A stretch of 64,000 nucleotides of DNA from an uncultured Thermoplasmatales archaeon (GCA_964467345.1 CAYXPY010000007.1:11868-75867), one strand, 5' to 3'. Positions 1 to 17,243 are shown, counted from the stretch's first letter. Notes: generated by a model not told the origin, from the sequence alone. Translations and numbers: made by a program.

Positions 1-1836
1 GCTGCTTGAATTTGTTGATTCGAACTGCCCCCAGCCATACCCTGTGTTATACACACAGCCGAACGCAAGCTCGGTGTCTGAATGGAACAACATTGATTCG
101 ATGATGCCATCGTCACCATCATCGAAATCACCGCAGTGGCATCCGTAATCATGGATGAAGAACGGTCGCGTGTTATGATACAGGTTCTCCCAGTCGCTCT
201 TCCCGACATCCAGGGACATCTGGTTGTTCGCATGGGCAATCCCACTAATGATGGTCACCCGGTCCTCGTTAATAGCGGTCCTAAAGCCGTTAATGGCTCC
301 GGTTTCACTACCGCCCTGCCAACCAGGGTTGGGTGGCTCCGCGGTCCATCGGACGGATATGTTATACTCGTTGCCGATATTGACCTGGTTCCAGGTCTCA
401 AACCCATACTGGAAACCCACCCAGGTGGGAAACTGCCCAGGATCATCAGGGTCGGGCCCAAGCCAGTCGTCGGTTCCTTTTATAGCACTATAATCGACGA
501 AATCATCCCCCTGACAGTTCCATCCGGTGTTCCCCCCATAGAACCCGGTGTTGTCAAGGTAATCGCCATCGGTGCTCTCCGCATAGTAAAAGCATTTTGT
601 CAGCCAGTTGGAGACATCCTGCGGCGTATCACAGGTGACACGACCGAGATACACCTCTGCATAGAGATCAAAGCCATTGTCTGCTTCCTCACCCCAGCGG
701 TTATCCTGATCCGCATTGAAGCTGTTATCAAGATTACTCCAATAAATATCAGCATCGACGTTCCCCTCATAGGCGTAATACATCTGCCGGGCTGGCATCG
801 TGTCTGCATCCCCGGCGATCAGGATGAATCGCGTCTCCCAATCCTGATACGCGTCTCTGCAGAACTCCCGGATGCGCGCCTGGCTGTCGTTGAAGAGTGC
901 AGTGGAGTTATAATAATCAGGGCAGGCAAGGATATCCTGCTTGGTGACAAGCGTGCAGCTTAACCCATCTGCCGCATGATGGCTCATCAGGCTTTCCCAG
1001 TTATACGGGGTCGTCGTGGTGGTGTCCCAGTAGTCCAACCCGTTCTGGGTGGTCGTGATAATCACATAGTCATAATGATCTGAAGAATCGCACAGCCCTC
1101 CCGGGTACTCAAAGGTCGGCAGACCAGCACGGGGGTACTGGTTCATCACCTCAGGGTTGGAGACCAACCGGGCGACATAGGATTGATCCTCAGGATCGCC
1201 CCGATAGAACTGGTTCTGGTCTGCATCCTGTAACGTTATTGTCACCGTCAACCGAGGGTAGTACTGCAGGATGCCTCTCACCGGGTTGTACTGCACCGGA
1301 TTGAGGTTTACGGAAAGAACCGGATACCCATGGGAATATCCTAGGCAATACTCTGAATAGCGCATGATTGGATGGAACTCATCGGTTGCATACAGCTCTT
1401 GGTTCATGACAAACTCAAATGGCTCGTCACTCCCGATCGGGACAGACCGCTGCTGCGGATACAAGGGTGTCTCCGTTAGTTTCACCCCAGCCAGATCCAG
1501 TGGAAGTGGGCTCCCCAGGACGTTGATCCGTGCGACCGTCTTATTGGGCGGCAGCAGCAAGGAAACCACCTTGACAGGAAGTGCTGGGTCCCCTGCGGAT
1601 CGACCAACCGCGATACAGCCTGCCTGCGAGATGGTCGCATAGGCTGCATCCATGGGTTGTATGCTTGGCTCAAGGAACTCAAACGAATAGCTCAATCGGT
1701 TCCCTACGAACCTATCTTCAAATTTCAACGCAGCCCCCAGTGGTGCTGCGGCAGATGTCATCATCAGTGCGATGCACATCAGAAAAACGACACCTATTCT
1801 GCCTTCTATACTCTTGTTCTTATGTCTGTTCTTCAT
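1..1836 (-). CDS. Secreted peptidase C25 (gingipain-like) paralog, 3' end truncated by window edge (612 codons in window, no stop)
   Basis: Manual minus-strand translation from ATG at 1836..1834 gives MKNRHKNKSIEGRIGVVFLMCIALMMTSAAAPLG (signal peptide-like), then DYVIITTTQNGLDYW...GDADTMPARQMYY...ISGIAHAN...HDYGCHCGDFD. It is open in frame to position 1. Architecture and motifs parallel the C25-like paralogs at 36345 and 62780. Absent from the supplied ORF track (no stop in window). GGGGAT RBS-like and TATATA motifs upstream. Confidence 0.6.
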   Translation of the reverse strand, partial: MKNRHKNKSIEGRIGVVFLMCIALMMTSAAAPLGAALKFEDRFVGNRLSYSFEFLEPSIQPMDAAYATISQAGCIAVGRSAGDPALPVKVVSLLLPPNKTVARINVLGSPLPLDLAGVKLTETPLYPQQRSVPIGSDEPFEFVMNQELYATDEFHPIMRYSEYCLGYSHGYPVLSVNLNPVQYNPVRGILQYYPRLTVTITLQDADQNQFYRGDPEDQSYVARLVSNPEVMNQYPRAGLPTFEYPGGLCDSSDHYDYVIITTTQNGLDYWDTTTTTPYNWESLMSHHAADGLSCTLVTKQDILACPDYYNSTALFNDSQARIREFCRDAYQDWETRFILIAGDADTMPARQMYYAYEGNVDADIYWSNLDNSFNADQDNRWGEEADNGFDLYAEVYLGRVTCDTPQDVSNWLTKCFYYAESTDGDYLDNTGFYGGNTGWNCQGDDFVDYSAIKGTDDWLGPDPDDPGQFPTWVGFQYGFETWNQVNIGNEYNISVRWTAEPPNPGWQGGSETGAINGFRTAINEDRVTIISGIAHANNQMSLDVGKSDWENLYHNTRPFFIHDYGCHCGDFDDGDDGIIESMLFHSDTELAFGCVYNTGYGWGQFESTNSSS

Positions 1837-1974
1837 TGGTTATCCCCTATCTCGTATATACCAGTACATAAGAACGATGCCTGAGTATATATGCTTTATC
1901 GTCTCTGAGAGCTCATCAATCACGGCGTAACAGGAGGGATTCTTTCCTACCATCATGCGTGAGACCATCAGAAG

Positions 1975-2042
1975 AAAAAAAAAGAAAATATATAAAAAAA
2001 AAATTAAAAAAAAATAGAGGAGGAGTGAAAGATTTCACTCCA
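1975..2042 (-). terminator. Hairpin (GGAGTGAAA-gat-TTTCACTCC, 2022..2042) followed on the minus strand by a long oligo-T tract. Terminator of the 1683-aa gene
   Basis: Perfect 9-bp inverted repeat with 3-nt loop 13 nt downstream of the stop at 2055. Plus-strand poly-A (T-rich on the minus strand) 1975..2016. Confidence 0.45.
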
Positions 2043-2054
2043 ATGCGTGTGTCT

Positions 2055-5000
2055 TTAGAGCTGTTTCAGCAAAGTGTAGTACTGTTGCTGGTTGCCGTAG
2101 TCAAACGAGGTGACGACATCGCTCATCTTTGAGTTGCCTGCCGCATCATAGACGATACATTGTGCGGTGTGGATCTTTGATTCGACCAGGAACTCGTAGG
2201 GTGCGCCGTCAGTGTCTTCGCCGACTAAGGCGTCATCTGCGTAGAACTCCACTTTCACGATGCCGCTGGTGGCGTCTGTTGCGTCCGCCTCAAGTAACCA
2301 TTTGGTCTTCAAGCCGTTCTGTGCTGTTGCGGTGAAGGCGTTGATGACCGGTGCGGTCTTGTCCATCTTGAAGCTGATGCTCTTCTCTTCCTCGGTGTTT
2401 GGAGGCACTGCTTTGTCGACGGAGTAGAAGTAGACTGTGTGTTGTCCATCGGTGGTGACCTGGAATGGTGTTTCGTAGAGTGTCCATTCGCCGTTGTCGA
2501 CCTTATACATGGTGTAGTCGACGCCCTCAGGCCATTTCTCATCGTATGCCGTCAGGGTCACGGTGACGCTGCTGACATACCATTCGCTCTGGCCCATGGT
2601 CCCTGCGAGGGTTGCCTCGGTGGTCGGTGGGGTCGTGTCGGGGATCCTGATGATCCAGCTGAGTGTCTTCTTGTCGTTGTTGGGGTGGTCATCGCCAGGT
2701 AGCACGGTCTTCATGGTGAGCTTGTAGTCTCCTTCTGCATCGGGGTCCTCAGGTATGGTGATGTCCGGGAAGGTGACAACTGCGGTCCCACCAGGTGCGA
2801 CTGGTCCAGCGACAACAACAGTCTCATCATAGACGATGACACCAGTGTCGTTGGTGATCTGGGCGTTCACGGGGATGTCAATCTCGGGGAAGGTGACTCC
2901 TAGGTTCTGGATGATACCCTCAACGGGGTAGGTTCCAGGTAACCAGTATTCGTCGCCACCGCCACCAGAGGTGACATGTCCACGGATCTCAAAGGCGACA
3001 TCATAGCCAAGGCCAGGGAGATCGTACCAGGTTGCACCATCAGAGGAGAAGAACGCGGTCTTCAGGGTGATACCGGGTGCGGAACATTCCAGTGGGTATT
3101 CTCCGGTGTTATGGGTTCCTTCCACGCAGAGCCAGATATCGCTTCCATCGAGTGTGACTGGACTTGAGAGTGGTACTTCGAACCAGTCGTCACCGGTGAT
3201 GCTGAACGGCTCAGTGGTGATCTCAGCACCAGGAGCAGTTGCTGATCCAGCGCTGTAGATGTGAACGTTCCCAGAGAATGCGACGGCACCGTAGTGCTTC
3301 CAGCGGATCATATCGAGGTCCCATCCGATGTATGGTGTTTGTTCATCGATGGTGAACCGGTTTGCACCGTAGATCTGACCAGTGGTTGAGCCGAACGCGT
3401 TGGCGTACACTCCGTTATCGTATTGTAACCAGCCTTCATCCTTTGGAGCTGATCCAGAGGGTTCGGTGATTGCAATGACTCCCGCGTCGTGTTCGTAGCT
3501 GAGGGTGATGATCTTTCCAAGGACGTTATCAGCTGGGTACCCATCATCCATGAGTGATGCTTCCAACAGGCTTAGGTCATCGAAGAAGATGTTGTTGCCG
3601 TAGAAGGACTCTCCATAGAAGCCGATCCAGACCGCTGGTAACCCCGCAAAGGCAGACAGACCAATGCTGTGTTGTTTCCAGCCGGTTGACCCATCGTACC
3701 GGTTGATGGTTTCAAGCAGGTAGAAGTTGGCTCCGTCTGGTGATGCGCAGACCGTGATCCGGTCCGTAGTCCCACTGTATCCCGTGTCGTGATACATCCA
3801 GAGTCTCATTGCATAGCCGTCAGCTGTGGTAAAGTCGAAGGAATTGTCCTTGACAAACAGTTTGCTGTTACCTGAGCTGATATACCAGCAGGCATACCGG
3901 GCCATCCAGCTGCCACCATGTGGTGTACAGGTTGGGTAGGTTCCGCTTTGTACGCCGTCGAATTTGTTGTCGACATCGGTTCCGCTGATGGTGTATTGAG
4001 ACCAGCCGGGGAAGTAGCCAGGAACTTCAGGTGTTCCCGCATCTTCGAATCCGACAAAGGTTCCATCAGGTAAGGTGACATCATCGACCCAGATATACCA
4101 GGCGTACCAACCAATGTAGCGGATAGCGAAATACACGGTTTGTCCCACATAGGCGGACATATCAAAGGTGTATTGCGTGTAAACCCCGGGCACTGGATAA
4201 TAAACACCAGCAAGCATGGTTCCTGAAAGGAAGTCAGCGGGGGTGTTCCCGGTTGTGGACATGTAGATTTCGTATTCATCGTCACCATAGTTGTAGGTGT
4301 CGACCCAGAGCTCAAAGATTCCGCCGGGCGCGACGACAACAGGTCCTGTTGCGAGCCAGTCATCGTTGGGTTGTACCGCGTAGTCATAGGTGCATTTTGC
4401 ACATCCCACTCCGCTGCGTTGTCCCGTAGTACTGCGGACCCAGGCATTTCCGGTGTTGACGTTATAAATCATCCAACCTGGGGGTTGCCATTGAGGTGGA
4501 ACCGTTGGGACCCAGTCCTCAAAGCCGTAGGTGTAGAACTCAGCGAATCCGTTCAATGTCGCTTCGACGTCGACCAAGTAGTCGATGTTCTCAGCGAAGG
4601 GAACATCTGATGGTGTCCAGTCAGGCAGGATAGCGTTGACGGTTTCACCAGCAACGACATCAACGGTCACGGTCTCGTCATATTCCTCGACCATGTCAAT
4701 GATGCCAAGCCAGGCGTCATCAACGTACCAGTAGTTGATGTTGAACGAATCACCGCTCATATCCCAGGCGATCCGGAAGGTTGCTGATCCGACACCATTG
4801 GCTGCGGTTAAGGCAACCTCCGTGGTAGCTGGACCATACGGACCACCGGCACGGACGTACGCATCGCTCCAGGTTGCTCCTGAATCGATGGAGGTTTGGA
4901 TCTTCAGGTCATAATCACCGTTGTAATCGTTGACGTACTCTTTGAATTTTAAGAGCAGTGCGGTGTATCCGGTGGTGTCGATATCCATCGTGTAGAGTCG

Positions 5001-7106
5001 GTGTTCACCAACACTGGAAGGTGACCAGGTGAAATATGCCTCTGGTGCGACTCCGCCAGCGTAGTTTGTGCTGCTGCTCATCCAGTTGCTTGGGTAGTTG
5101 GTTCCCCAGCCTGCTGGTGGCACGCCACCGGAGAAGTCTTCTTCAAGAAGCGTGGTGTAGAGGGCTTTGCCGATGGTCATGTGCACGTTGACGCTCTCGG
5201 CGTTCTGACCCTTGTTGAAGATGACGACCTCAGGGGTCTGGGTCTGTGCAAGACCGTTCTGTGGTGAGACGATCTCTGTTATTGCGACATCATGGAGGTA
5301 CCCGTAGTGCAGGGTGAAGGCTTTCTCCTTGTAGTCGTTCTGGGTGTTCTCATCGACAAACAGGTTGGTTGCCTCTGCGTTGTAGTTAATGTTGACATTC
5401 TCAGAGACACCAAGCGCTGCAGGTGTCCAGGTTGGGAAGGAAACCTCTAAGGTTGTGTCTGGTGCAATCGAGGGGACCGTCACAGTCTGGCTGTATTCAT
5501 TCTGCCAACTGATGATGGTAAATCCGACATCATCGATGTACCACCCGGTGTATTGAACAGACGAGTCAGAAGCGGTTTCGAACATGATTTTACAGTCTTG
5601 TCCCTCATAGGCGCTTAAATCAAAGTTGGCTTGTTTCCAGCCACCACTTTGACCATTATAGGCGGCCTGTCCAGTCATGTACGGGTTATATGCCATGGAA
5701 CCAGGGTATCCTCCAACGGGGGTGATTATCGTCCAAGTGGTTCCACCATCGTTACTGATTTTGACGTTTCCACCATCATAATTGTTCTCAAAGTAGTACC
5801 AGTGCCAGAAGTTGAACAAGGCACCACTGGGGACGGTAAACGTCGGCGTCACAAGATAACACCACATGCTGGCTGGGTAGTTCCCGGCTAGGTTTGTCGC
5901 CCAGACGTTCGCACCATTGTGAGCAGCCATTGGCCCAGAGGTCGGTGCGCCCCATTGCCATGCATCAGGCTGTGGGAGCTTTGGCGCGTGAATGTAACTG
6001 CCGTTGGTCGCCTCGAAATCCTCAACAGTTCCCGTGACGACTTCAACACCGATGTCGAGCTTAATTTGGACGTTAGTCTCGGTGTTCAACCCGATGTTCT
6101 TCACTTTAACGATCGGGGTGATCGGGCCGGCGTTGCCGCTGGCTGGTTTGACAATACCGCTGATCGCGATATCATGGTCATATTGGAACGGTAACCAGGG
6201 GATGGCGAATCCATCGACTTCCATACCGCCTTCGAAGGCACCAACCAAGGTACAGGTTAAGCCGTCTAAGGTGTACAGACCAGCTGTGCCACTTTGGGTG
6301 TACCCAGCGATGTAGAAGATCTCATTGTCTCGATCATAGGCTGGGTCCTGTGCATACAAGAACCCGATGTTCAACGCACCAAGATCCGTAGCTGCACCGG
6401 ATGCTTTGTCAACGGAGTACAGATGGCTCATACCGCTGAACAACACATCATAACCATAGATATCACCGCTGTTATCACAGATGAGACCAATCAGGGTGTT
6501 TGCGATCCCGTGAGAACCAACAACGGTGGATGTTCCTGTTAACACATCAACGGTGTATAAGCTGCCGCCACCAGTTCCATACCAGGTAGCCGTAGTTGAA
6601 TCAAAGCACAACCCGTTCATACCCGGTGAGGGGCCCATTAAGGTCATGGTTCCATCATAATCGATATGATAGATCCCACCACCGTACTCGACACCATACC
6701 AGTTACCATCTGCATCGATGTCAGCACCGCCAATGAAGTTGGGGACGATACCGGCTTGCAATGATTCGATGGCATCAGGGGTATCAAAGGTGATTGGCCC
6801 TTCTGGATGTGCACCGGAGGGATCATACGCGTTATACGCATAGAAATAACCCCTGTCTAACAGTGGTGCATGTTGGGTCGGAATTCCCTTTGTTACCAAA
6901 GGTGATAACCCATCTGCTCGTGCTATATATTCTTTGTTCTCTGCATCTAGAGCTATGACGGGTATGCTATTTTGTGTCTTAGTTTCCTGTGGCCGTATCG
7001 CTGCAGACGCTGCAGTCCCTAAAAAGAGGGCAGCGACTAGGACGACGGTCATTAGAAACATAGTCTTCGCTAGCTTACTTTTCCATACACTATGTTTTGC
7101 TTTCAT
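2055..7106 (-). CDS. Giant secreted multi-domain protein (1683 aa): signal peptide, beta-propeller-like Gly/Tyr/Asp-rich N-terminal region, four MAM/choice-of-anchor-J-like modules each ending in a [WF][YF]xDD motif, and a C-terminal Ig-like module shared with the 29608 protein
   Basis: N-terminus MKAKHSVWKSKLAKTMFLMTVVLVAALFLGTAASA. Repeated motifs TGWYIDDVGF / NYWYVDDAWLG / AWYIWVDDVTLP / NNIFFDDLSL. C-terminal ~185 aa (TLAGTMGQSEWYVSSVTVTL...DKTAPVINAFTATAQNGLKTKWLLEAD...QQQYYTLLKQL) is about 70% identical to the C-terminus of the 29608..31374 protein. Confidence 0.7.
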   Translation of the reverse strand: MKAKHSVWKSKLAKTMFLMTVVLVAALFLGTAASAAIRPQETKTQNSIPVIALDAENKEYIARADGLSPLVTKGIPTQHAPLLDRGYFYAYNAYDPSGAHPEGPITFDTPDAIESLQAGIVPNFIGGADIDADGNWYGVEYGGGIYHIDYDGTMTLMGPSPGMNGLCFDSTTATWYGTGGGSLYTVDVLTGTSTVVGSHGIANTLIGLICDNSGDIYGYDVLFSGMSHLYSVDKASGAATDLGALNIGFLYAQDPAYDRDNEIFYIAGYTQSGTAGLYTLDGLTCTLVGAFEGGMEVDGFAIPWLPFQYDHDIAISGIVKPASGNAGPITPIVKVKNIGLNTETNVQIKLDIGVEVVTGTVEDFEATNGSYIHAPKLPQPDAWQWGAPTSGPMAAHNGANVWATNLAGNYPASMWCYLVTPTFTVPSGALFNFWHWYYFENNYDGGNVKISNDGGTTWTIITPVGGYPGSMAYNPYMTGQAAYNGQSGGWKQANFDLSAYEGQDCKIMFETASDSSVQYTGWYIDDVGFTIISWQNEYSQTVTVPSIAPDTTLEVSFPTWTPAALGVSENVNINYNAEATNLFVDENTQNDYKEKAFTLHYGYLHDVAITEIVSPQNGLAQTQTPEVVIFNKGQNAESVNVHMTIGKALYTTLLEEDFSGGVPPAGWGTNYPSNWMSSSTNYAGGVAPEAYFTWSPSSVGEHRLYTMDIDTTGYTALLLKFKEYVNDYNGDYDLKIQTSIDSGATWSDAYVRAGGPYGPATTEVALTAANGVGSATFRIAWDMSGDSFNINYWYVDDAWLGIIDMVEEYDETVTVDVVAGETVNAILPDWTPSDVPFAENIDYLVDVEATLNGFAEFYTYGFEDWVPTVPPQWQPPGWMIYNVNTGNAWVRSTTGQRSGVGCAKCTYDYAVQPNDDWLATGPVVVAPGGIFELWVDTYNYGDDEYEIYMSTTGNTPADFLSGTMLAGVYYPVPGVYTQYTFDMSAYVGQTVYFAIRYIGWYAWYIWVDDVTLPDGTFVGFEDAGTPEVPGYFPGWSQYTISGTDVDNKFDGVQSGTYPTCTPHGGSWMARYACWYISSGNSKLFVKDNSFDFTTADGYAMRLWMYHDTGYSGTTDRITVCASPDGANFYLLETINRYDGSTGWKQHSIGLSAFAGLPAVWIGFYGESFYGNNIFFDDLSLLEASLMDDGYPADNVLGKIITLSYEHDAGVIAITEPSGSAPKDEGWLQYDNGVYANAFGSTTGQIYGANRFTIDEQTPYIGWDLDMIRWKHYGAVAFSGNVHIYSAGSATAPGAEITTEPFSITGDDWFEVPLSSPVTLDGSDIWLCVEGTHNTGEYPLECSAPGITLKTAFFSSDGATWYDLPGLGYDVAFEIRGHVTSGGGGDEYWLPGTYPVEGIIQNLGVTFPEIDIPVNAQITNDTGVIVYDETVVVAGPVAPGGTAVVTFPDITIPEDPDAEGDYKLTMKTVLPGDDHPNNDKKTLSWIIRIPDTTPPTTEATLAGTMGQSEWYVSSVTVTLTAYDEKWPEGVDYTMYKVDNGEWTLYETPFQVTTDGQHTVYFYSVDKAVPPNTEEEKSISFKMDKTAPVINAFTATAQNGLKTKWLLEADATDATSGIVKVEFYADDALVGEDTDGAPYEFLVESKIHTAQCIVYDAAGNSKMSDVVTSFDYGNQQQYYTLLKQL

Positions 7107-7369
7107 AAAATTTTACCTCGCCTTACTCTTCTTAAATGCGTATGGTCTTAATAAATGTTTCGCACCAAATATATATATTAATATTTAAAATAAAATAAAA
7201 AGAATTGAAATAACTCCTCTGGAGAAAAACAGAAAAGAGACAGAGAAAAGAACCTTTCTACAGACCATTATATAATAAACGTATTAGAAATCAGATCCAA
7301 CCACCACACAGCCTAAGGAAATCCGCCCCCAACCAACAAAACCTGCTCTTTATAGTACATAATACATAT

Positions 7370-7410
7370 GTAGAAAAAAGAAAAAATCAATAAAAAAGAA
7401 AAAAAAGAGG
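7370..7410 (-). terminator. Oligo-T tract (minus strand) immediately after the stop of the 7414..9768 gene
   Basis: Plus-strand aaaaaagaaaaaatcaataaaaaagaaaaaaaaga directly 3' of the minus-strand TAA at 7414..7416. Archaeal terminators are oligo-T. Confidence 0.4.
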
Positions 7411-7413
7411 ATG

Positions 7414-9768
7414 TTAGGCGACGTTTACAAAAAACGGGCCTATCAACAGAGCGGTTGCGGTTTTTTCCAGTTCACCGACCGTGACAAGGATCTCCACCGA
7501 TCCAAGACCAAACACAAAACCGGTTTTGGCCTTCGGGGCAAACCCAGGCATGATCTTCTCAAACGAACCAGATGAATACCGGCCAAGAAGAATCAGGTTC
7601 CCCTGGATGGCAATCGACCAGTTCACATTCGTTGCAGCCCCAGCCCCCGTGTTCTTAATCGCTGCCGTGACACTCCCAACACCAGCGGAAATCTCCCCAA
7701 TCTCGATGCAGGGAAGCGCATCGATGTGGATGGAGGTTTCCTCGGACCAATCGCTTTCCAGGTCATCCGTGTCCTTTGCCTTGACCTTGATACTGTAGTC
7801 ACCTATGATCGTCCAGCTATGGTTCAAAACAACAGATTCACCAGAATCAAACGGACCAAGCCACCCAGTCATCTCATCACCCCAATAAACCATGTAATAC
7901 ACATCATTGTTCTGCGGGTCTGTCGTCAGGAACGTAAACGAATACTCAATCCCGATCTCTCCTGCGGTTGGCCCTAAAGGTTTATCAGGTATATCTGGCG
8001 GCGTGTTGATGTTCGTCTCCCCATTCCAGAGCTTCACGGATGAGTCACCAAGCACATTATACGCCTCAAAATAGTATTTTGTCAGACCTGACCCACCGTA
8101 ATATTCATAGAGATAGAACAGACCCTTATTGGTCATACCACCGATCATCTCAAGGTTATCCTCCCACCAGGCTTTAAACATCCGTTTCTCTAAGATATCA
8201 TCCTCATCCCAATAGGTCGAGGCAGACGCACCCCAGAACGCTATTGCCCCTTTGTTTTCAACCCGAAGCCATGTTTCACCAAAACATTCACCTTGGTTAA
8301 AGGGGTTTGTCGAACAGGCATGGCTACACACAAACGGATACATATAATAATTCTGAAGATTCTGCACATTACTTTGATCGAACGGAACACAGCCCCATCC
8401 TCCAGAGTACCCATGTCCCGAATAAACACACAGGCTTCGTCCATCGTTCAAAGCGTTTGTGACATCTGAAGTGCTTCCGCCCTGCGATTGATAAATCTTA
8501 TCACAGGTGTAGTTGTTTGGCGCAAGGTAGGTGTCAATCACATAGTTATGGGTATCCTCTGCCATCCCCCCTGCATCACTTGAGGCGAGAAACGCTGCTT
8601 TCTTTATCCAGGACTCGTCTGGGAACACACCAACCTCATAATAGATGGTTTTATCGACCATGATGGTCACATGCTCAGCGGTAGCGGCGGGAAAACGACT
8701 CACTATGAGATCAGCAAAATAATTCCCTTGATCAATCGTAGCATAATACAAATCAGTACACGAACTACTTTGCGTACCAGTCCACGTGGGAATCTGAGCA
8801 ACATCACCGACTAACAAGACATACACCGGAGGCGTCGTCCAGTTATTGAACGCATCAGCGATATAGCTTTTGATCATTTCTTTTGTGACACCACCCGGGA
8901 TCTCAGAGGTTGTCGTCACCGTGGTCTCAAAACCCAGGGAGTCTTTCCAGTCAGCAAACGGAGCAATCGCATCGACAAATGAATCATGAACAATAATTAG
9001 ATATCCTTCTTTCCGCGGTCCATTTCCCGTCGTCCCTTCCAACGCACCATAGTTGACAAACGAGGTGCGGAACAGTTGTTCAAACGAGGAAGTTGTATAC
9101 CGGTCAATCCTCTCAGCAGTCTTCACCAGATCGCTCCCCGGAAGCTCGATACGGATATCACAGCTGGTCATAATGCGTAATTTTCCAGTAGAAGGATTAT
9201 ACTGCACGGGAAATATACTCAGAAACGCGATGTTACGTCCTCGCAGTTCCCCAAGAGCACTGACCGTAGCGACATTCGAAGGCACAAACGAGTCCTGCGC
9301 ATAGAGGCTGTCATCAATAGTAAACGGTACCGTCGCACCCTCTATTTTTACCAAAGATTCCTGAACAGGGATCACCCATGAGGGAAGATGCAACGCGTCA
9401 AGTGATGTCGTCTCCCAGGTCACCGATTCAACAACAAACGCAGGAACCGCGCCCTGAGGAATTTCCAGAAACCGGGAAATCACCGGTAGCTGAGGCTGAC
9501 CAACAACTGTGGAAACCCCCTCGCCAGGTATTTCCACTGTTGCATAATTCTGCCCAGCAAGAATGCGTTGACCGAACGTTAACGGAGACGGTGTGATACT
9601 CACGGTGATATAAGGCTGGTCGGTATAATGAAACGTCGATGTGATACCATTTGAGTTCATAGAAAACGACTCACTCGTTGGATGAACTGCACTAACCCCT
9701 GCCGAGAAGAGAAGTATCAGTGCAACAGCTGCCTGAATAACCATTTTTTTCTTAGTACTAAGCTTCAT
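7414..9768 (-). CDS. Secreted peptidase C25 (gingipain-like) with C-terminal PKD domain plus CARDB-like beta-sandwich module
   Basis: Signal peptide MKLSTKKKMVIQAAVALILLFSAGVSA. YLIIVHDSFVDAIAPFADWK...LLVGD core. His/Cys dyad context VYSGHGYSGGWG and FVCSHACSTNPF. PKD signature YYMVYWGDEMTGWLGPFDSG...GDYSIKVKAKD. C-terminal ~100 aa (NTGAGAATNVNWSIAIQG...KTGFVFGLGSV) is homologous to the C-terminus of the adjacent M14 protein. Confidence 0.7.
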   Translation of the reverse strand: MKLSTKKKMVIQAAVALILLFSAGVSAVHPTSESFSMNSNGITSTFHYTDQPYITVSITPSPLTFGQRILAGQNYATVEIPGEGVSTVVGQPQLPVISRFLEIPQGAVPAFVVESVTWETTSLDALHLPSWVIPVQESLVKIEGATVPFTIDDSLYAQDSFVPSNVATVSALGELRGRNIAFLSIFPVQYNPSTGKLRIMTSCDIRIELPGSDLVKTAERIDRYTTSSFEQLFRTSFVNYGALEGTTGNGPRKEGYLIIVHDSFVDAIAPFADWKDSLGFETTVTTTSEIPGGVTKEMIKSYIADAFNNWTTPPVYVLLVGDVAQIPTWTGTQSSSCTDLYYATIDQGNYFADLIVSRFPAATAEHVTIMVDKTIYYEVGVFPDESWIKKAAFLASSDAGGMAEDTHNYVIDTYLAPNNYTCDKIYQSQGGSTSDVTNALNDGRSLCVYSGHGYSGGWGCVPFDQSNVQNLQNYYMYPFVCSHACSTNPFNQGECFGETWLRVENKGAIAFWGASASTYWDEDDILEKRMFKAWWEDNLEMIGGMTNKGLFYLYEYYGGSGLTKYYFEAYNVLGDSSVKLWNGETNINTPPDIPDKPLGPTAGEIGIEYSFTFLTTDPQNNDVYYMVYWGDEMTGWLGPFDSGESVVLNHSWTIIGDYSIKVKAKDTDDLESDWSEETSIHIDALPCIEIGEISAGVGSVTAAIKNTGAGAATNVNWSIAIQGNLILLGRYSSGSFEKIMPGFAPKAKTGFVFGLGSVEILVTVGELEKTATALLIGPFFVNVA

Positions 9769-9976
9769 TCTTCATATCCCCTATTAATTCTATTTATTCT
9801 CTATTTAACACTAACAAAATTCATATTTATATAGATATCGACTAGATGAAAACCTTCTTCTCCACCAAGAAGTCTAGGATTTCTCTCATCATGCTCTTCT
9901 CTCTTATACATACTCTCCTGTCATACGTTCTTTATTACAAGATAACCATCACATGTTTTGAGAAGGGAAAAACTTG

Positions 9977-12343
9977 CTAGGATCGGAGGAATACCAAGGG
10001 TCCCAGAAGAAACCCGGAAACAGATTTCTCAGCGACATCTGCTGTAACAAGAACCGTCACTGACCCGACGCCGAAGACAAAACCGGTTTTTATCTGGGGG
10101 CTGAACCCAGGGACGATCTTGAGTATCGTTCCCGTAGTCTCCCTTCCAAGGAGAACCACGCCACCCTGAAGAGAAATCGACCAGTTCACATCCACAGCAT
10201 CCCCAGCACCGGTGTTTGCCACCCTCGCGGTGATACCAAAACCACCGGTTATCTCAGCAATCTCTACACAGGGGGAATCTGTGATGTGAACGGTGATAGG
10301 ATCGGACCAGCCGCTTTCAATACCCGCACTGTCCTTTGCTTTCACCTTCACGGTATAGTCACCAGAGGCAGACCATTGATGTACGGCTTCTGCAGAGGCA
10401 TCAGAGTCAAACGGACCAAGCCAGTCGCTTATGCTATCACCCCAGGACCAGAGATAGTAGACCTGCTGACCCTCAGGATCGGTTGTACTAGTAATATATG
10501 AATAGTTGATAGCAGTCCCACCGGTGGTCGGACCAACAGGTTGATCAGGGTTATCCGGAGGTTGATTTGCGTTTGCTGCAGCAAGGTTCTGGACGGCATC
10601 GATATCAACAGCAGGGTTCAACTCACTGGGATTACCAGTGCCATCATCAACGATTTTTACGTAGCGGGCTGACTCCACCGAGCCAGCAGCAAGATCAAAC
10701 TCAGAAGTCCCCATCCCAGTTCCAAGCAACACCCAGGGGCCTTCCCAATCACTTGAGACATACACGGAATAGCCGTCCTCTGTTGTGTCCCCCTCGAAGA
10801 TCTTCAGGTCGTTCGCATCAGGGAAATTTGTGATCTGGTCAGCCATATCCACGATAATATATCCACCGACACCAAGCGATGCGCAGACGTCATCAGGAGG
10901 CCCGAGACAGGCGATACCCTCGGTGGGGTTCGTCTGATAATTATCGGAGGGAGCATAGTACGCGCAAGTCGTGACTTGGTATGCAAAATATTGGTTACTG
11001 GGGGTGAGTGCGACATTTAACACCGTTGGTTCTCCTTCATCGACATCAACGGTGTATGTTTTTTCCTGATACCCATTTGCTCGATAGTGGACGGTATACG
11101 TCCCAGGGAGCAGGATGCGATGATAGTCCCCAACCAAAGGATCTGTGAAACAAGGCCAGAACACCTCATCAACCCAGACGGTCGCAGCAATCGGCTGTCC
11201 GTTGTTCGCATTGGTCACCACACCGGTCAAGCCCATATCCGCTGCAGTGATGATATCCATCATCCCCTCACGATTCAGATCCCATGCTTGAGGGATGTTG
11301 GAAGTCTGCACTTCGATGGTCCAGTCGATGTCACCACGACACCCGTAACTAAAATCATTGCAATCCCCGAGGGTCTGATACCAGTCGTACCCCTCAACCA
11401 CCCAATACCCATTATGGGATGCGTACATCTCTGACAAATAGACGACGGCGTCATCGTCAGGGACACGTTGGTGTTTATAATTCCACACGTAGTTTACGAT
11501 GTTCCCGGAGCAGTGATACGACAGCGATAGCACAAAGTTATTTTCCAGTGCATTCTTGCGTATCGCTCGTGTCTCAGGCTCAGAATACGGGGTAGCGCTC
11601 TCCGGCATGTACCCATAATTTCTATTGAGATCAACCCCATGGGCATTGTATCGAGTACCTGCTTCACGTCCATCAGGATTCATCATTGGGATTATCCAAA
11701 TCTCTCTGTTGTCTACGAGGTTTGTAATCGTCGGATCAACACTATAGTTCTGGGTGAGATGAAACGCCAGATTCAGCGGAAGTTCCGCAGACATGTATTC
11801 ATTCCCATGATGAAGACCCATAATCCGAACCTCTGGTTCGTTCTCCTCGACATCCGGATTATCTGTAATCTGTAAACCCCAGATGCTCCTGCCTTGCACG
11901 CTTTTCCCAAGCTCGTGTAATCGTGCAATCTCCGGGTAGTCTGCCGCGATGTTTTGAAGTTCTGTGGTCATCTGCGCATAGTTGTGGAAATCACGAGCAA
12001 ACAAGGGAGAGAATAACCACCCGCGCTCCATTGCAATCTCATCAGGGACCAGCTTTGGAGAGAGATTCATAACCGTAAGCCAGTGATACTCCTCTGGTGA
12101 GATAAGGACAACAACAGATGTTCTAGTTTGGTCAATCTCAAGAATGGTCATTCGTTTCTGAAGTATCTGATCAAGCACGTATGAATCCGACAGCGGAACA
12201 GAGACGACAAGAGTCTCAACCGAGTATTGTGTGATGGTCTGTGCCGTGAGAAATCCCCCCAGCATCAGGGTGATGCAGAGGGTGAAAAAAACACAAAAGC
12301 TATAGGCTTTTCCAATTGTTTTCATTCGATGATTCATCTTCAA
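9977..12343 (-). CDS. Secreted zinc carboxypeptidase, peptidase family M14, with C-terminal PKD plus CARDB-like module
   Basis: M14 hallmarks YHNYAQMTTELQNIAADYPEIARLHELGKSVQGRSIWGLQIT, HHGNEYMS (HxxE zinc site), NPDGREAGTRYNAHGVDLNRNY, SYHCSG, DWTIEV. PKD segment YYLWSWGDSISDWLGPFDS...GDYTVKVKAKD. C-terminal ~100 aa parallels the 7414 protein. N-terminal hydrophobic segment. Confidence 0.85.
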   Translation of the reverse strand: MKMNHRMKTIGKAYSFCVFFTLCITLMLGGFLTAQTITQYSVETLVVSVPLSDSYVLDQILQKRMTILEIDQTRTSVVVLISPEEYHWLTVMNLSPKLVPDEIAMERGWLFSPLFARDFHNYAQMTTELQNIAADYPEIARLHELGKSVQGRSIWGLQITDNPDVEENEPEVRIMGLHHGNEYMSAELPLNLAFHLTQNYSVDPTITNLVDNREIWIIPMMNPDGREAGTRYNAHGVDLNRNYGYMPESATPYSEPETRAIRKNALENNFVLSLSYHCSGNIVNYVWNYKHQRVPDDDAVVYLSEMYASHNGYWVVEGYDWYQTLGDCNDFSYGCRGDIDWTIEVQTSNIPQAWDLNREGMMDIITAADMGLTGVVTNANNGQPIAATVWVDEVFWPCFTDPLVGDYHRILLPGTYTVHYRANGYQEKTYTVDVDEGEPTVLNVALTPSNQYFAYQVTTCAYYAPSDNYQTNPTEGIACLGPPDDVCASLGVGGYIIVDMADQITNFPDANDLKIFEGDTTEDGYSVYVSSDWEGPWVLLGTGMGTSEFDLAAGSVESARYVKIVDDGTGNPSELNPAVDIDAVQNLAAANANQPPDNPDQPVGPTTGGTAINYSYITSTTDPEGQQVYYLWSWGDSISDWLGPFDSDASAEAVHQWSASGDYTVKVKAKDSAGIESGWSDPITVHITDSPCVEIAEITGGFGITARVANTGAGDAVDVNWSISLQGGVVLLGRETTGTILKIVPGFSPQIKTGFVFGVGSVTVLVTADVAEKSVSGFLLGPLVFLRS

Positions 12344-12603
12344 TTATCCCCCATGTCGTCTATGGAAACATACTTCTTAAACATTGTCGTTGTGAAACCA
12401 CAAGAAGAAAGGCTCGCAATCCCTCTGCTTTCTTCTTAGGTCACTACTTGGCAATCAACCCTGCATGAAACAGAGTAGGATCCATCGTAGGATGCATCTA
12501 TTATACTATTTAATAGTATGTTCTTATATAAATAAGGTTCGGCGTTTTTTCGTCTTTATGCAAAAAAAATTAGGTGAAAGTAATATTAGAAAAGGGTATG
12601 AGA

Positions 12604-12620: not shown

Positions 12621-12626
12621 AATGTA

Positions 12627-13019
12627 TCATGATTGGTGTGTATTGAGGATTCGAACAATACAATCCTTGAGTTTCATAATATCAAAAGGTTTTACGATAT
12701 AATCCTCTGAACCGAGACGTCCGATACCCATGCTCATCTCATCGCCTTTCGCTGTGAGAAAGACAATTGGGACCGACCGCCAACGGTCATTTTCTTTAAT
12801 ACGTGCTGCGACATCCCAGCCGCTCATTTGTGGCATCATTATATCTAATAGGATAAGATCTGGGATCTGGTTTTGCTGTAACATCTTGAGGCATTTCTCC
12901 CCGCTGTCCACCCCGATAACTTGATATTGTCCGGTTGAATCTTCTAAGACTTGTTTGACGGAGATGAGGATATCGGGATAGTCATCAACCACGAGAATTA
13001 TTTTTGGCATCCACCCCAA
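12627..13019 (-). CDS. Single-domain response regulator (CheY-like receiver)
   Basis: KIILVVDDYPDIL...DLILLDIMMPQMSGWDV...VPIVFLTAKGD...YIVKPF receiver signature with phospho-acceptor Asp context. About 60% identical to the 46888..47289 paralog. True start may be the internal MPKIIL. Confidence 0.85.
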   Translation of the reverse strand: MGWMPKIILVVDDYPDILISVKQVLEDSTGQYQVIGVDSGEKCLKMLQQNQIPDLILLDIMMPQMSGWDVAARIKENDRWRSVPIVFLTAKGDEMSMGIGRLGSEDYIVKPFDIMKLKDCIVRILNTHQS

Positions 13020-13235: not shown

Positions 13236-14441
13236 ATGCTAAATACCGCTGATGTTACAAAAAAGTTTATTGAGACGATAATCGAAATCATTGGGAGGAA
13301 AACATCAGAAGAATACGCAGCGATAACGATACGTAACATACTCGAAAAACTCCAACGCACCTATCCTTTCTTAACAGAAATCGAAGTGAAAAATTCTCGG
13401 TCCGTCGAAATGGAAGAAAAAGTCACAGCCCACGAGGGACTCAACGACATTGCTCCAAAAAAGGTGGGAGTGGCTTTAAAGCATCTTATCACAATAATAA
13501 TGAACTCCCTTGGAAAAACCGCTGGTTATTTCTTTATCAGAGAGGCACGGGAAAAGATAGGCGTCGAATATGAACTGATTCTGCTCAAGACAATGGATGT
13601 TGATCTGACGCTTTTGCAGTCTACCTATATTATTGAAAAAAAATCTGTCGATCTTCTTGAGATTCACACCTCTGATGTGCTCCGACGTTTTTTACGGGCG
13701 TTCCTCGATGCATTGGAAAAACAAACATCAAAAACTTTTGCCATAACATTTCTCATTAAACAACTATCCCAACTGCAACAGGACTATCCATTTCTTACCG
13801 CTGTCTCCATTCAAAACATACGTTATACGCTCGGATCAGAGGAAATTGGGGTACAACCTCAGATAGATACTATTGACCCAAAGGAAGTAGGAAAAGCGAT
13901 TAATTCGATTCTCCAGCAGACCGATAAAGAACTCATAGAACTTGGTCGTAATTCCATCGCAGGTGACCTCAAATCACATCTCACCATGGAGTATATCTCA
14001 AAATTGGGAGATATGGAGGTAACCATAACCCCATACAGCATTGGGTATAGCGCGATATTCATTCAGGTGATAAAGACATTAATCGACGTTATCAGCAAGA
14101 CAAGTAACGAGAACTATGCGATTATTGCGGTGAATTCGTTTCTAAGAAAGGGTGACAGCAAGTTTGAATTCTTAAAGGACGTCAATGTTCAACCACCTGA
14201 TAATAAAGAGGGAATGTACCATATCACGATACCTCAGAGGATTGATTCTATTACGGAAACTGACGCCCGACGTGTTATCCAGCAGCTTCTCTCGATTGCT
14301 TTGGAGTCATCTGGGGAAAAAACAAACGGTGAATTTATCCAACAATTCAAAGGTGCTCTAGAGAAAAAATATCTTTTAAAACTAGAGGAGATGGGCGTCA
14401 ATTTTCATATGATCGAATTACATAAAGCGATGTCGATGTAA
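13236..14441 (+). CDS. Hypothetical protein built from three tandem copies of an unrecognised ~110-130-aa domain (same domain occurs once in the 27391 protein)
   Basis: Three internal repeats sharing [GS][RK][KQ]TS..YA[IV]...L...YPFL..[IV].[IV]...P.[KE]VG.A[IL]...G..AG.FFI.E.R.K.G...MGVDL.L.Q. Examples: GKTAGYFFIREAREKIG...TMDVDLTLLQ and 27391 protein GENAGHFFIKEIRNKLG...DMGVDLGLMQ. No membrane segments. Confidence 0.55.
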   Translation: MLNTADVTKKFIETIIEIIGRKTSEEYAAITIRNILEKLQRTYPFLTEIEVKNSRSVEMEEKVTAHEGLNDIAPKKVGVALKHLITIIMNSLGKTAGYFFIREAREKIGVEYELILLKTMDVDLTLLQSTYIIEKKSVDLLEIHTSDVLRRFLRAFLDALEKQTSKTFAITFLIKQLSQLQQDYPFLTAVSIQNIRYTLGSEEIGVQPQIDTIDPKEVGKAINSILQQTDKELIELGRNSIAGDLKSHLTMEYISKLGDMEVTITPYSIGYSAIFIQVIKTLIDVISKTSNENYAIIAVNSFLRKGDSKFEFLKDVNVQPPDNKEGMYHITIPQRIDSITETDARRVIQQLLSIALESSGEKTNGEFIQQFKGALEKKYLLKLEEMGVNFHMIELHKAMSM

Positions 14442-14560
14442 AAAGATAAACTAAATACGTAATATGATAGATTATATCATATTTGATATAAAAAATATCA
14501 TTCAAGCATGAAAAATAGTATACAAAATCGAAAGGAGAGACCATAAAAAAGGAAGCGCCC

Positions 14561-15982
14561 ATGAAAGAACCGCTCGACCTAAAAAAATTTTTCTTAAGTA
14601 GAATAAATGTGAAACTTACATTACTGTTCCTATTAGTGGGCTTGGTCGCCCCGGGAATTGGAATCGGATATTTCTATCTTATCGCAAACTCATTCCTGAT
14701 AGAAAATTCTCAATTTTTTAGTCAGCAACAAATGCTCTTAGACGCTGCAGCACTTCTCATCATCGTTCTTATCGCTGTCAATACCATGCTTATTGGATTT
14801 CTGATTTCACGTTCATTTTCTAAACCAATCCGAGATCTTTACCACGCTGCTTTAGAGTTAGAAAAAGGGAATTTTACCGTCAGGACCAACATACAGACAA
14901 ATGATGAGCTTGCGCAGCTCAGTGAAGCATTTAACAGAAGCGCGTTTGCGTTAAGTAAAATGGAGGAGGAACGTCTCAATCTTGACCGGTCGAAATCAGA
15001 ATTCCTCAGCATCACTTCCCATGAACTACGCACCCCAATCACACCCCTAAAAGCGCAACTACAGATGCTGCAGCAGGAGTATTTTGGCAAGCTGACAGAC
15101 AAACAAAAACAAAGTGTCGATGTTATCCTGCGCAATGCGGAACGACTCAATAAAATCATCGAGGATTTCCTTGAAATCTCCCGTATCGAAGCAGCACGGT
15201 TGAAATTTGTTTTTAAAAAGACAAATCTCTCAGATATTATCACAGAGACCGCCGAATTTATGAAAGGATTTGCTAAGGAGAAAAATATCACTCTTGTTAC
15301 AAAATGTGGTCAACTTCCCACCATTGAAATCGACCCTGACCGAATCAGCCAGGTCCTTCGGAACCTTGTACATAACGCAATCAAATTCTCACCAAAAGAC
15401 AGCACCATAGAAATCGATGCCCAGATGCAAAACCATCATGTTCGCTTCAGCGTCAAAGACAGAGGAGTTGGGTTGAACGCTGATGACCAGATCCGAGTCT
15501 TTGAACCATTCTATCAAGTGCAAGGGTCCCTTAGCCGAAACTATGGGGGGACCGGATTAGGTTTAACGATCTGTAGAGGGATCATCGAAGCCCAAAAAGG
15601 AAAAATATGGGTCGAAAGTAAACCGGGGGTAGGCAGCACGTTCTATTTCACCGTGCCCATTACACCTGTGTATGAAATAGAACCAATCAAAGTCCTCTTC
15701 TCACAGAAAAGCGAAATTGAAAAGAAAATAAAAAAAGAACTCATGAACACGCTTGGACCCATGGGCGAGGCTGAGTTCAACGACCTGAAAAACAAACATT
15801 CCCTGAATAAGGAGGACCTTGTCGGGTATGTTCTCTTGCTAGAAAAACAACGTATCTTGCGCCATTCACACGCAGAAGAGCTAAAACGAAACATCGGGAA
15901 TATTTTTGGTGAAGAAAACCGAAAAGAAGAAAACAAACCACAAGATAAAGAAATAAAAGGAGAACTCCAGGTGAAACAATGA
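14561..15982 (+). CDS. Membrane sensor histidine kinase (2 TM, HAMP-like linker, HisKA, HATPase_c) with K/E-rich C-terminal extension
   Basis: Two N-terminal hydrophobic helices. H-box SHELRTPITPLKAQLQML. N/G boxes HNAIKFSP...DRGVGL...GGTGLGLTICRGIIEAQKGKIWVES. ATGA overlap with the downstream PAS gene. Confidence 0.85.
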   Translation: MKEPLDLKKFFLSRINVKLTLLFLLVGLVAPGIGIGYFYLIANSFLIENSQFFSQQQMLLDAAALLIIVLIAVNTMLIGFLISRSFSKPIRDLYHAALELEKGNFTVRTNIQTNDELAQLSEAFNRSAFALSKMEEERLNLDRSKSEFLSITSHELRTPITPLKAQLQMLQQEYFGKLTDKQKQSVDVILRNAERLNKIIEDFLEISRIEAARLKFVFKKTNLSDIITETAEFMKGFAKEKNITLVTKCGQLPTIEIDPDRISQVLRNLVHNAIKFSPKDSTIEIDAQMQNHHVRFSVKDRGVGLNADDQIRVFEPFYQVQGSLSRNYGGTGLGLTICRGIIEAQKGKIWVESKPGVGSTFYFTVPITPVYEIEPIKVLFSQKSEIEKKIKKELMNTLGPMGEAEFNDLKNKHSLNKEDLVGYVLLLEKQRILRHSHAEELKRNIGNIFGEENRKEENKPQDKEIKGELQVKQ

Positions 15983-17142: not shown

Positions 17143-17243
17143 TAAAAAAACACAAGAAAATAGGGGAGAAATAAGAAGAAGGCCTCCTTCTTTAAACACC
17201 ATCAACTATTTATGTGGATTTCCTATCTCGGGTCTTGATTACC

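Follow-up and report, generated by a model that had tools for sequence, protein, structure and literature searches.

Genes of the block

The stretch of DNA considered here, referred to throughout as the window, comprises 64,000 nucleotides from an uncultured Thermoplasmatales archaeon (GCA_964467345.1, CAYXPY010000007.1:11868-75867). Bases 1-12,343 are occupied by a block of four minus-strand genes for secreted proteins, designated C25a, giant, C25b and M14. An earlier description made from the sequence alone (the sequence-only reading) had listed four consecutive genes here, for a C25 peptidase, a 1683-amino-acid (aa) giant protein, a second C25 peptidase and an M14 carboxypeptidase, and the Pfam assignments agree with it. 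A signal-peptide-like N-terminus, basic and then hydrophobic, is found in all four proteins.

C25a (1..1836, minus strand) encodes a C25 cysteine peptidase of the gingipain family that carries a signal peptide and is 901 aa long in full, of which the window contains the N-terminal 612 aa. The C-terminal part is encoded past the left window edge; a full-length protein of 901 aa (P0241) is 100% identical, and the whole gene is present on L089, an independently assembled contig of this population with 3 mismatches over 2174 nt. L089 carries the block at least 5.3 kb past the left window edge, through a PKD protein on the other strand (PKD496) and then a further C25 gene, and the block is truncated by that edge. 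C25b (7414..9768, minus strand; E 2.5e-66) is 784 aa long and consists of a signal peptide, propeptide, catalytic domain, PKD domain and C-terminal beta domain. Relative to Pfam gathering cut-offs of 23 and 22 for Propeptide_C25 and Peptidase_C25, C25a scores 57.7 and 50.2 bits and C25b 224.9 and 47.3 bits, and two more C25 genes of the window, C25c and C25d, likewise lie above the gathering scores.

His452 in the 'SGHG' motif and Cys485 in the 'HAC' motif of C25b align with the 'AHGS' and 'NCC' motifs of Kgp (4tkx), which we take to contain the catalytic histidine and cysteine of that enzyme. This histidine is invariant in the four paralogues and in 17 orthologues, and the cysteine occurs in the aligned motif of every paralogue. 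No match to the C-terminal domain of the type IX secretion system (T9SS) or to Por_Secre_tail was found in the C25 proteins, and PorU-type models of NCBIfam reached only 57 and 54 bits (cut-offs 420 and 450), sub-threshold matches that arise because the C25 fold is shared. The T9SS C-terminal sorting domain is a feature of the bacterial C25 members and not of the family as such. Recent duplication of, or conversion among, the four paralogues was rejected, as they are only 22-26% identical to each other.

M14 (9977..12343, minus strand) encodes a 788-aa zinc carboxypeptidase of the M14B type, in which the M14 domain (Peptidase_M14, 158 bits) is accompanied by a transthyretin-like CarboxypepD_reg domain (41 bits) and a PKD domain. 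Its 'HHGNE', 'SYH' and 'TIEV' motifs align with domain II of duck carboxypeptidase D (1h8l, E 2e-43), and both the zinc ligands HxxE...H and the catalytic glutamate are conserved. Residues 591-783 of M14 and 586-779 of C25b form a shared C-terminal module of PKD and beta domains, with 53% identity over 194 aa.

The giant gene (2055..7106, minus strand) encodes a secreted all-beta protein of 1683 aa, 100% identical to P0121, in which Pfam recognizes an InhA-like MAM domain and Big_7/DUF7743. Following the signal peptide are repeated jelly-roll domains of the MAM, choice-of-anchor-J and cleaved-adhesin-like kinds, and the protein ends in an OmpL47-type barrel and Big_7. The AlphaFold model, which covers residues 370-1015 at a mean predicted local distance difference test (pLDDT) value of 80, is all-beta, with Ig-like domains between the jelly rolls. 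In a Foldseek search it matched the K3 (3m1h) and K1 (4itc) cleaved-adhesin domains of Kgp with template-modelling (TM) scores of 0.59-0.64 and 21-24% identity; reelin repeats, meprin MAM and CBM22 are matched comparably, with sequence identity highest for Kgp K1/K3. The Cleaved_Adhesin family (PF07675) has no match in the giant at E <= 0.01 and weak matches in its orthologues. A sequence search of the PDB returned no match to the giant, in which MAM, choice-of-anchor-J, OmpL47-barrel and Big_7 are the only domains recognized. One homologue is named 'immune inhibitor A' at NCBI; assignment of the giant as a metallopeptidase was rejected, since it has no HExxH or HxxEH motif, and no other catalytic motif turned up in it.

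Residues 1488-1672 of the giant (window 2091-2645) are 64% identical over 185 aa to residues 393-572 (window 30784-31323) of a 588-aa secreted protein encoded further along the window. Both proteins end in a tail rich in Gln, Tyr and Leu just past this common OmpL47-type barrel and Big_7/DUF7743 module, which may serve in surface anchoring or sorting.

Between the genes lie short AT-rich spacers. The spacer between the giant and C25a (1837..2054, minus strand, GC 0.37) contains a hairpin (GGAGTGAAA..TTTCACTCC) and long T-runs directly after the giant stop codon; the C25a start is preceded upstream by promoter-like sequence rich in AT and by a GGGGAT motif resembling a Shine-Dalgarno sequence. 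The spacer between C25b and the giant (7107..7413, minus strand, GC 0.30) has T-runs after the C25b stop and TATA-like and Shine-Dalgarno-like motifs upstream of the giant. More generally, oligo-T runs follow the stops of the adjacent response regulator gene, M14, C25b and the giant, a hairpin preceding one of them, and a G-rich Shine-Dalgarno-like motif (GGGGAT, GGGGGAT, GGGGAGGT or GAGGT) precedes the starts of six secreted genes at 1836, 7106, 9768, 12343, 29608 and 36345. These motifs begin approximately 10-17 nt upstream of the start, leaving a gap of approximately 5-9 nt. Together, the oligo-T runs and Shine-Dalgarno-like motifs suggest that the genes are separate transcription units.

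Base composition of the block

For GC content, GC content at third codon positions (GC3) and codon usage, the reference was the 64-kb window, in which 42 genes fall outside the secreted hydrolase/adhesin class. The four block genes have a GC content of 48-53%, compared with 41% in other genes and a window mean of 0.422, which bears out the earlier description of the block as visibly GC-rich. In 1-kb steps, GC is 0.50-0.54 from 1 to 7 kb, 0.44-0.46 from 7 to 10 kb and 0.49-0.52 from 10 to 12 kb, and it then falls to 0.41 and 0.39. The right edge is therefore as abrupt as had been claimed; it lies at 12.4-12.6 kb and is reproduced at 99.4% identity by independent assemblies. To the left, the extension of the block in L089 is GC-rich throughout, with GC3 values of 0.60 for the full C25a gene, 0.53 for PKD496 and 0.50 for the next C25 gene. 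The values of 28-40% GC that had been quoted for pyrB and the CBS genes were too low, as these measure 43-44%.

The GC3 values of C25a (gene GC 0.53), the giant, C25b and M14 are 0.63, 0.60, 0.50 and 0.52, and they hold ranks 1-4 among 46 genes, the other 42 having a mean of 0.383 with a standard deviation (SD) of 0.066 and a maximum of 0.500 in porB. C25a and the giant lie 3.3-3.7 SD above the other genes, while C25b and M14 are at about 2 SD, near porB. The true GC3 outliers are thus the two leftmost genes only. As the overall GC of C25b (0.48) is also not above that of porB (0.49), and as codon regimes differ from gene to gene (see below), the block is not uniform in composition.

A long antisense open reading frame (ORF) at 136-963 on the plus strand does exist, as had been pointed out, and has no Pfam match. 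The antisense ORFs were rejected as genes, since Pfam matches none of them and all are nested inside well-supported genes.

Inheritance of the locus

The block is native, vertically inherited DNA and not a recent foreign acquisition, and it represents the window-truncated core of an extracellular proteolysis locus of the Thermoprofundales, also known as MBG-D (for Marine Benthic Group D); taken together with the origin of its high GC and the function that are proposed below, we place the probability of this reading at roughly 0.6. The first line of evidence is gene order. An aminotransferase, a PAS protein, a histidine kinase and a 401-aa protein on one side, and the response regulator, M14, C25b, giant and C25a genes on the other, recur in the same order in at least 15 related Thermoplasmatota metagenome-assembled genomes (MAGs), at 58-91% aa identity (58-89% for C25b; loci L005-L011, L014, L015, L018, L028 and L083-L088). 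The response regulator gene (12627..13019, minus strand) encodes a stand-alone receiver domain and marks the right edge of the block, its GC of 0.435 and GC3 of 0.47 being within the spread of the non-secreted genes; it adjoins M14 upstream, on the same strand, in all syntenic relatives. The conserved flank (13236..18473, plus strand) is divergent from the block and encodes the 401-aa protein, for which Pfam gave no match, a HAMP-HisKA histidine kinase, a HAMP-PAS protein and a class I/II aminotransferase. In two relatives (L087 and L088), the next genes of the cluster are one for a PKD protein, on the opposite strand, another C25 gene and an HTH gene, and no integrase was called at the HTH-gene end of the cluster in relatives.

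The second line is congruent divergence. Across 12 taxa, the distances of M14 and C25b correlate with those of the kinase and the 401-aa protein in the flank (Mantel r 0.754, P 2e-4, in a comparison of distance matrices rather than maximum-likelihood trees), and in most taxa the distance to the window is nearly equal for block and flank. Nearly all homologues of the giant and of the two C25 proteins are from Thermoplasmatota MAGs, and their closest named relatives are Thermoplasmatales archaeon SM1-50, M11B2D, M9B2D and 3300003432D, which are the genomes that defined the Thermoprofundales (Zhou et al. 2018, PMC6461988).

Furthermore, the DNA of the block outside its coding regions is as AT-rich as the spacers of its surroundings. 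The four block spacers, namely three intergenic ones and that between M14 and the response regulator, have GC contents of 0.30-0.37 (mean 0.33), compared with 0.32 +/- 0.056 for other spacers, and every one contains T-runs after the upstream stop and AT-rich promoter-like sequence. Similarly, tetranucleotide z-scores of the block segments correlate with those of the window remainder at 0.60, 0.45 and 0.56, within a native range of 0.42-0.64. At the right edge, the reported absence of a tRNA gene or integrase was borne out: the nearest tRNA genes are at 31.4 and 33.2 kb, and Pfam finds no integrase domain in the flanking genes, direct repeats not having been searched for and the left edge lying outside the window.

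Because of this synteny, the congruent distances, the native spacers and tetranucleotides, and an edge devoid of tRNA and integrase genes, recent import of an island is unsupported. That the whole block is a recently acquired island from a higher-GC donor, not yet ameliorated, is a very improbable account and one already largely refuted, despite the features that it shares with horizontally transferred genomic islands: raised GC and GC3 and a sharp boundary at 12.4-12.6 kb. It fails to explain why gene order and congruent divergence are kept in at least 15 relatives, or why mobility genes are lacking at the edge. Nor do the genes resemble one imported piece, as they differ in composition, and in the giant it is C and not G that is raised at four-fold sites, unlike what a generally GC-richer donor would provide. 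The more distant C25 relatives are bacterial (Zixibacteria, Ignavibacteria and Gemmatimonadota, at 35-47% identity), which makes an ancient inter-domain transfer of the family plausible; such an origin is possible, and is irrelevant to the present composition. A chimeric contig joining two organisms, to which the abrupt compositional step and an interior of the giant (~2175-5993) without cover from any independent contig might point, is hardly credible, since one contig (L001, 99.4% identity, window 6589-18887) spans the step, two others (L002 and L089) cover both ends of the giant, and orthologous loci have the identical order and giants of their own.

Horizontal acquisition from a higher-GC relative, the first of the two explanations offered in the sequence-only reading, is therefore rejected. 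Of the signs that the sequence-only reading had itself named as refuting it, orthologous blocks at this locus in relatives and tetranucleotides within range were both observed, whereas the GC3 of C25a and the giant is out of range.

Sources of the GC excess

The GC expected from amino-acid composition was computed with the codon usage of the 42 other genes as the reference. Amino-acid composition alone predicts a GC content of 0.44-0.46 for the block genes, compared with 0.41, and accounts for approximately 40% of the excess, the remainder being synonymous. The claim that the enrichment sits in synonymous positions is thus correct for about 60% of it and incorrect for the other 40%. Gly, Thr, Pro, Ala, Trp, Tyr and Asp are abundant in the block proteins, whose content of Lys, Ile, Leu, Glu and Arg is low, and homologues of C25, M14 and the giant are GC-richer than their neighbours at 24 of 27 archaeal loci, with GC at second codon positions (GC2) higher by 0.06 on average. 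Yet high GC does not extend to all secreted proteins, because three small secreted lipoproteins of the window (28028-28453, 38910-39446 and 39685-40635) are GC-poor.

In the synonymous layer, GC3 exceeds its expected value by 0.24 in C25a, 0.20 in the giant, 0.11 in C25b and 0.12 in M14; for comparison, the excess is 0.11 in porB, and the SD among other genes is 0.064. The GC3 offset of homologues of the block genes is +0.04 to +0.10 in the clade of the window and approximately zero in distant Thermoplasmatota. The 185-aa module common to the giant and the 588-aa protein illustrates this layer, since the giant encodes it at a GC3 of 0.72 and the 588-aa gene at 0.43; at the 113 identical residues the values are 0.71 and 0.36, the difference being mostly one of C versus T.

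Codon regimes and strand asymmetry

Synonymous preferences were described by Y2C, the C-ending fraction of two-fold C/T-ending codons, and R2G, the G-ending fraction of two-fold A/G-ending codons. The giant favours C-ending codons (C 0.39 and G 0.15 at four-fold sites; Y2C 0.65), and in the giant and C25a pooled the fractions of AAC, ATC and ACC are 0.86, 0.73 and 0.60. In C25b and M14, A-ending codons are depleted and G/T-ending codons enriched (R2G 0.57-0.61), with a Y2C of 0.32-0.42 that is at or moderately over the minus-strand baseline of 0.28. In C25a, both G-ending and C-ending codons are raised. The block is therefore not homogeneous, and comprises three codon regimes. PKD496, on the opposite strand, has the C-ending bias of the giant.

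In a principal component analysis (PCA) of relative synonymous codon usage (RSCU), the first axis runs from T- to C-ending codons and separates the giant, C25a, porB, porA and porG from signalling proteins at the opposite end, and the second, from A- to G-ending codons, carries C25b, C25a, HMGR and DFP. This placement puts the four block genes at extremes of the genome's own codon axes. Genes for ribosomal proteins or elongation factors, which could anchor the first axis, are absent from the window, and C25b and M14 lie off that axis.

The regimes are repeated by the orthologues. Orthologous giants have a four-fold C of mostly 0.26-0.34 (0.20-0.23 in L009 and L018) and a Y2C of 0.41-0.66, and orthologous M14 and C25b genes are A-poor and G/T-rich. 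These gene-specific offsets are kept despite four-fold sites in the flanking kinase that are near saturation at the same distance (0.33 identical, compared with 0.26 expected), which argues further against horizontal acquisition. At conserved residues, the giant keeps more third-position identity than the flanks do, though its protein identity is lower.

Within the giant, GC3 climbs from 0.38 to 0.74 in the 5' to 3' direction. GC3 and C at third positions (C3) climb in this direction in all eight giants compared (the window, L007, L008, L011, L018, L087, L088 and L091), significantly in five of the eight, with GC3 of 0.30-0.48 in the first sextile and 0.54-0.71 in the last. These orthologues vary in length, from 1691-1723 aa (L008, L011, L087, L088 and L091) to approximately 2,290-2,390 aa (L007 and L018).

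Genes on the two strands differ in their four-fold sites, with an A-T skew of +0.11 in plus-strand and -0.06 in minus-strand genes (P 3e-6). C-ending two-fold codons are commoner in plus-strand than in minus-strand genes (P 2e-6, 42 genes), and cumulative GC skew falls steadily along the window, consistent with a single replication arm on which the minus strand is the G/T-rich one. The minus-strand pattern is more extreme in C25b and M14, and also in DFP, HMGR and Hjc. The giant and C25a oppose it, with Y2C z-scores of 6.5 and 3.8 relative to minus-strand genes.

Origin of the synonymous layer

The raised GC is made up of two layers. In the first, the Gly/Thr/Pro-rich beta proteins of the block raise GC at codon positions 1 and 2. 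For the second, that of the gene-specific codon regimes, the proposed mechanism is selection at synonymous sites for the efficiency and processivity of translation, which would act on long, heavily made secreted proteins; replication-strand skew might add to this layer, and transcription-linked mutation might play a part in C25b and M14. Of the candidate causes of the synonymous part, selection linked to heavy translation is the most likely, though it is unproven. Several observations point to a force that acts on the coding sense of particular genes: the spacers are unaffected, PKD496 on the other strand is alike, the module is recoded in the 588-aa gene, the bias climbs from 5' to 3', and C25 genes are highly expressed in related MAGs. 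Selection against costly late failures of translation in long genes predicts such a 5' to 3' rise in bias. In metatranscriptomes of Thermoprofundales MAGs, the most highly expressed peptidase genes include those for extracellular C25 enzymes (PMC6461988).

A stronger form of this proposal is that synonymous selection is strong enough to hold gene-specific regimes across genus- to family-level divergence and to produce the 5' to 3' rise in C along the giant, which would place the giant and its partner peptidases among the proteins that the cell translates most heavily. We advance it tentatively and regard it as possible rather than probable. The likeness to the codon bias of highly expressed and long genes lies in the preference for NNC codons on the main axis, together with the por genes, in the rise from 5' to 3' within a 5-kb gene and in the dependence on coding sense and not on the physical strand; the differences are the negative outcome of an Akashi-type test and the G/T-ending preferences of C25b and M14. 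Nonsense-error models, linked with Eyre-Walker (1996) and with Gilchrist and co-workers, reportedly predict position-dependent codon bias.

A number of points weigh against a translational cause. In the Akashi-type test, preferred codons were not enriched at conserved residues (Mantel-Haenszel Z of -1.1 to +1.7 in the four genes), and selection for translational accuracy was rejected for want of a signal in it. The high expression is drawn from related MAGs and not from this genome, and the 'optimal' codons are inferred from the por genes alone, the window having two tRNA genes. In sediment archaea that grow very slowly, translational selection is expected to be weak. Furthermore, C25b and M14 are without the C-ending bias of the giant, so that one mechanism does not cover all four genes, and their regime better fits strand- or transcription-linked mutation. 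The GC3 of C25a and the giant here (0.60-0.63) exceeds that of their orthologues (0.46-0.56), which leaves a lineage-specific component over, and GC3 has a regional structure in the window, including low GC at 39.7-51.6 kb, that might reflect regional effects of mutation.

An unlikely alternative is that the giant, and perhaps C25a, is a recombination-prone cassette that has gained GC through exchange with GC3-richer Thermoprofundales, through GC-biased gene conversion, or both. The giant is indeed a mosaic, with 100-aa segments that swing from approximately 0.3 to approximately 0.9 identity at different places in each relative; many database matches to it are partial only, and independent contigs stop inside it, at ~2175-6589, both in the same population (L001, L002, L089 and L090) and in the closest relatives (L083-L086). 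These features suggest exchange of domain cassettes and strain-level variation of a surface-exposed protein. The excess of third-position identity over the flanks, the raised G and C of C25a and the GC3 of both genes above that of their orthologues would also be in keeping with a cassette. Yet, compared with the flanks, no segment of the giant shows greater DNA similarity to any relative (the maximum is 0.90, in the closest species), and for this reason very recent transfer of segments is not indicated. Moreover, the bias of the giant is specific to C, with G unchanged, which gene conversion does not predict; the adjacent spacers have no GC enrichment; and the C-ending bias and the gradient are found in all eight giants. 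GC-biased gene conversion was accordingly rejected as a general cause: it would fit C25a, in which G and C are both raised, and not the giant, in which C is raised and G flat, nor the unaffected spacers.

We also consider it improbable that the synonymous layer is mutational, arising from replication-strand skew and from transcription-associated deamination of the non-template strand, especially in C25b and M14. The strong asymmetry of four-fold sites, which C25b and M14 exaggerate, and the negative Akashi-type test would be in line with it, and untranscribed spacers would escape transcription-linked mutation, which matches their GC. However, the giant and C25a run counter to the strand trend, and PKD496 shares the bias of the giant from the other strand. 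In most relatives, furthermore, the response regulator gene, which lies beside M14 on the same strand, is without the M14/C25b pattern, and deamination of C to T lowers C3 rather than raising it. In its pure form, an explanation by the physical strand was rejected: the skew is real, but the giant, C25a and PKD496 contradict it. Avoidance of oligo-T, the archaeal terminator, was also rejected as a driver of T-to-C change; runs of five or more T are rare in the block, and no rarer than in synonymous shuffles that keep the codon usage of each gene (P 0.08-0.74).

Selection on heavily translated genes comes closest to the second explanation offered in the sequence-only reading, a distinct regime of expression or selection for the secretome. 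This accounts for the data better than transfer does, but 'secretome' is too broad a term, given the GC-poor lipoproteins, the share of amino-acid composition and the presence of at least two regimes; what is left is a narrower, gene-by-gene version, the cause of which is unproven.

Relation to known systems

Extracellular peptidases of MBG-D were reportedly described by Lloyd et al. in Nature in 2013. A repertoire of such peptidases that includes C25 is discussed in PMC9585477, which cites that work, and Thermoprofundales MAGs carry 6-15 extracellular C25 genes and 1-2 M14B genes each, with C25 at high transcripts per million (TPM) values (PMC6461988). The gene content of the block is this known gingipain-type secretome of MBG-D, being of the same lineage and of the same families, with C25 in many copies and M14B. 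As far as found, the papers on MBG-D and Thermoprofundales give families per genome, and do not describe the conserved response regulator-M14-C25-giant-C25 locus, the giant or the peculiarities of codon usage and GC.

The giant also lends the locus a resemblance to the Porphyromonas gingivalis gingipain-adhesin system (Kgp, RgpA and HagA; 4tkx, 4rbm, 1cvr, 3m1h and 4itc), here in split form. The two are alike in the C25 propeptide and catalytic domain with its His/Cys dyad, and in the jelly rolls of the giant, which superpose on Kgp K1 and K3 as described above. They differ in that the host here is an archaeon, with no outer membrane and no T9SS C-terminal domain; in that the adhesin-like domains are encoded by a separate gene and not fused to the protease; in the C-terminal modules, which here are PKD and a beta domain or an OmpL47-type barrel and Big_7; and in the low identity of the catalytic domain (PDB E only ~1e-35).

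In a tentative scheme for the function of the locus, the C25 endopeptidases and the M14 carboxypeptidase would digest detrital protein outside the cell, and the giant would bind the substrate or scaffold the enzymes, in the manner of the gingipain adhesin domains. The adjacent two-component system, aminotransferase and pyruvate:ferredoxin oxidoreductase (POR) might then handle sensing and the catabolism of amino acids. The cluster always adjoins the response regulator, the divergent operon, the aminotransferase and porGAB, which in the window follows the conserved flank at 19.2-22.2 kb; this would make up a neighbourhood for sensing, digestion and amino-acid fermentation, in which the regulatory link is inferred.

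The mosaicism of the giant and the contigs that end inside it recall the hypervariable 'flexible islands' of cell-surface genes that, according to Rodriguez-Valera and colleagues, are said to appear as assembly breaks in metagenomes. Unlike these islands, the giant occupies the same position in every relative examined, and only its internal segments vary.

That the compositional step proved not to be an island calls for caution in inferring horizontal gene transfer (HGT), because the amino-acid composition and codon bias of large secreted proteins can mimic its signals. By the same token, genes for large secreted proteins may mislead k-mer tools for plasmid detection or binning on short contigs that they dominate. 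C25 genes have been reported as 'located in the plasmids of 27 genomes' on the evidence of the k-mer classifiers PlasFlow and PlasClass (PMC9585477). The C25 genes of the window are chromosomal, since they lie among por, pyrBI, AspRS, RtcB and tRNA genes, and some of the published plasmid calls may be compositional artefacts. The locus furthermore provides a concrete, conserved unit for the long-discussed degradation of extracellular protein by MBG-D, and a candidate for expression and biochemical studies. The persistence of its gene-specific codon regimes offers a small hint, open to testing, that translation is under selection in slow-growing archaea of the subsurface. Should strong synonymous selection be true, codon signatures would offer a proxy, readable from sequence alone, for investment in extracellular enzymes in situ.

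Other features of the window

Smaller GC peaks elsewhere in the window coincide with other C25 genes and with Ig-domain genes, and amino-acid composition accounts for most of those at 30-31 kb and 37-39 kb. The 588-aa secreted protein gene (29608..31374, plus strand) forms a local GC peak of this kind, due mainly to amino-acid composition. C25c (36345..38876, plus strand), the third C25 gene, encodes 843 aa with two PKD domains and stands out at a GC of 0.45 compared with 0.36 in its neighbours. C25d (62780..63997, minus strand; GC3 0.485), the fourth, probably extends past the right edge of the window, because its Pfam match begins at profile position 32 at residue 1; it too exceeds its neighbours in GC. 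Counting those beyond the left edge, at least five C25 genes lie within approximately 70 kb in this population.

The stretch at 39685-51624 is low in GC (0.33-0.38) and GC3 (0.24-0.35), with observed minus expected GC3 reaching -0.15 and z reaching -6.7. It contains genes for a lipoprotein, an amino-acid permease, NikR, HypF and a signalling set made up of a response regulator, a kinase, a V4R protein and a 5xPAS protein. This stretch deviates downward as much as C25b and M14 deviate upward, and has the lowest tetranucleotide correlation of the window (0.42-0.49).

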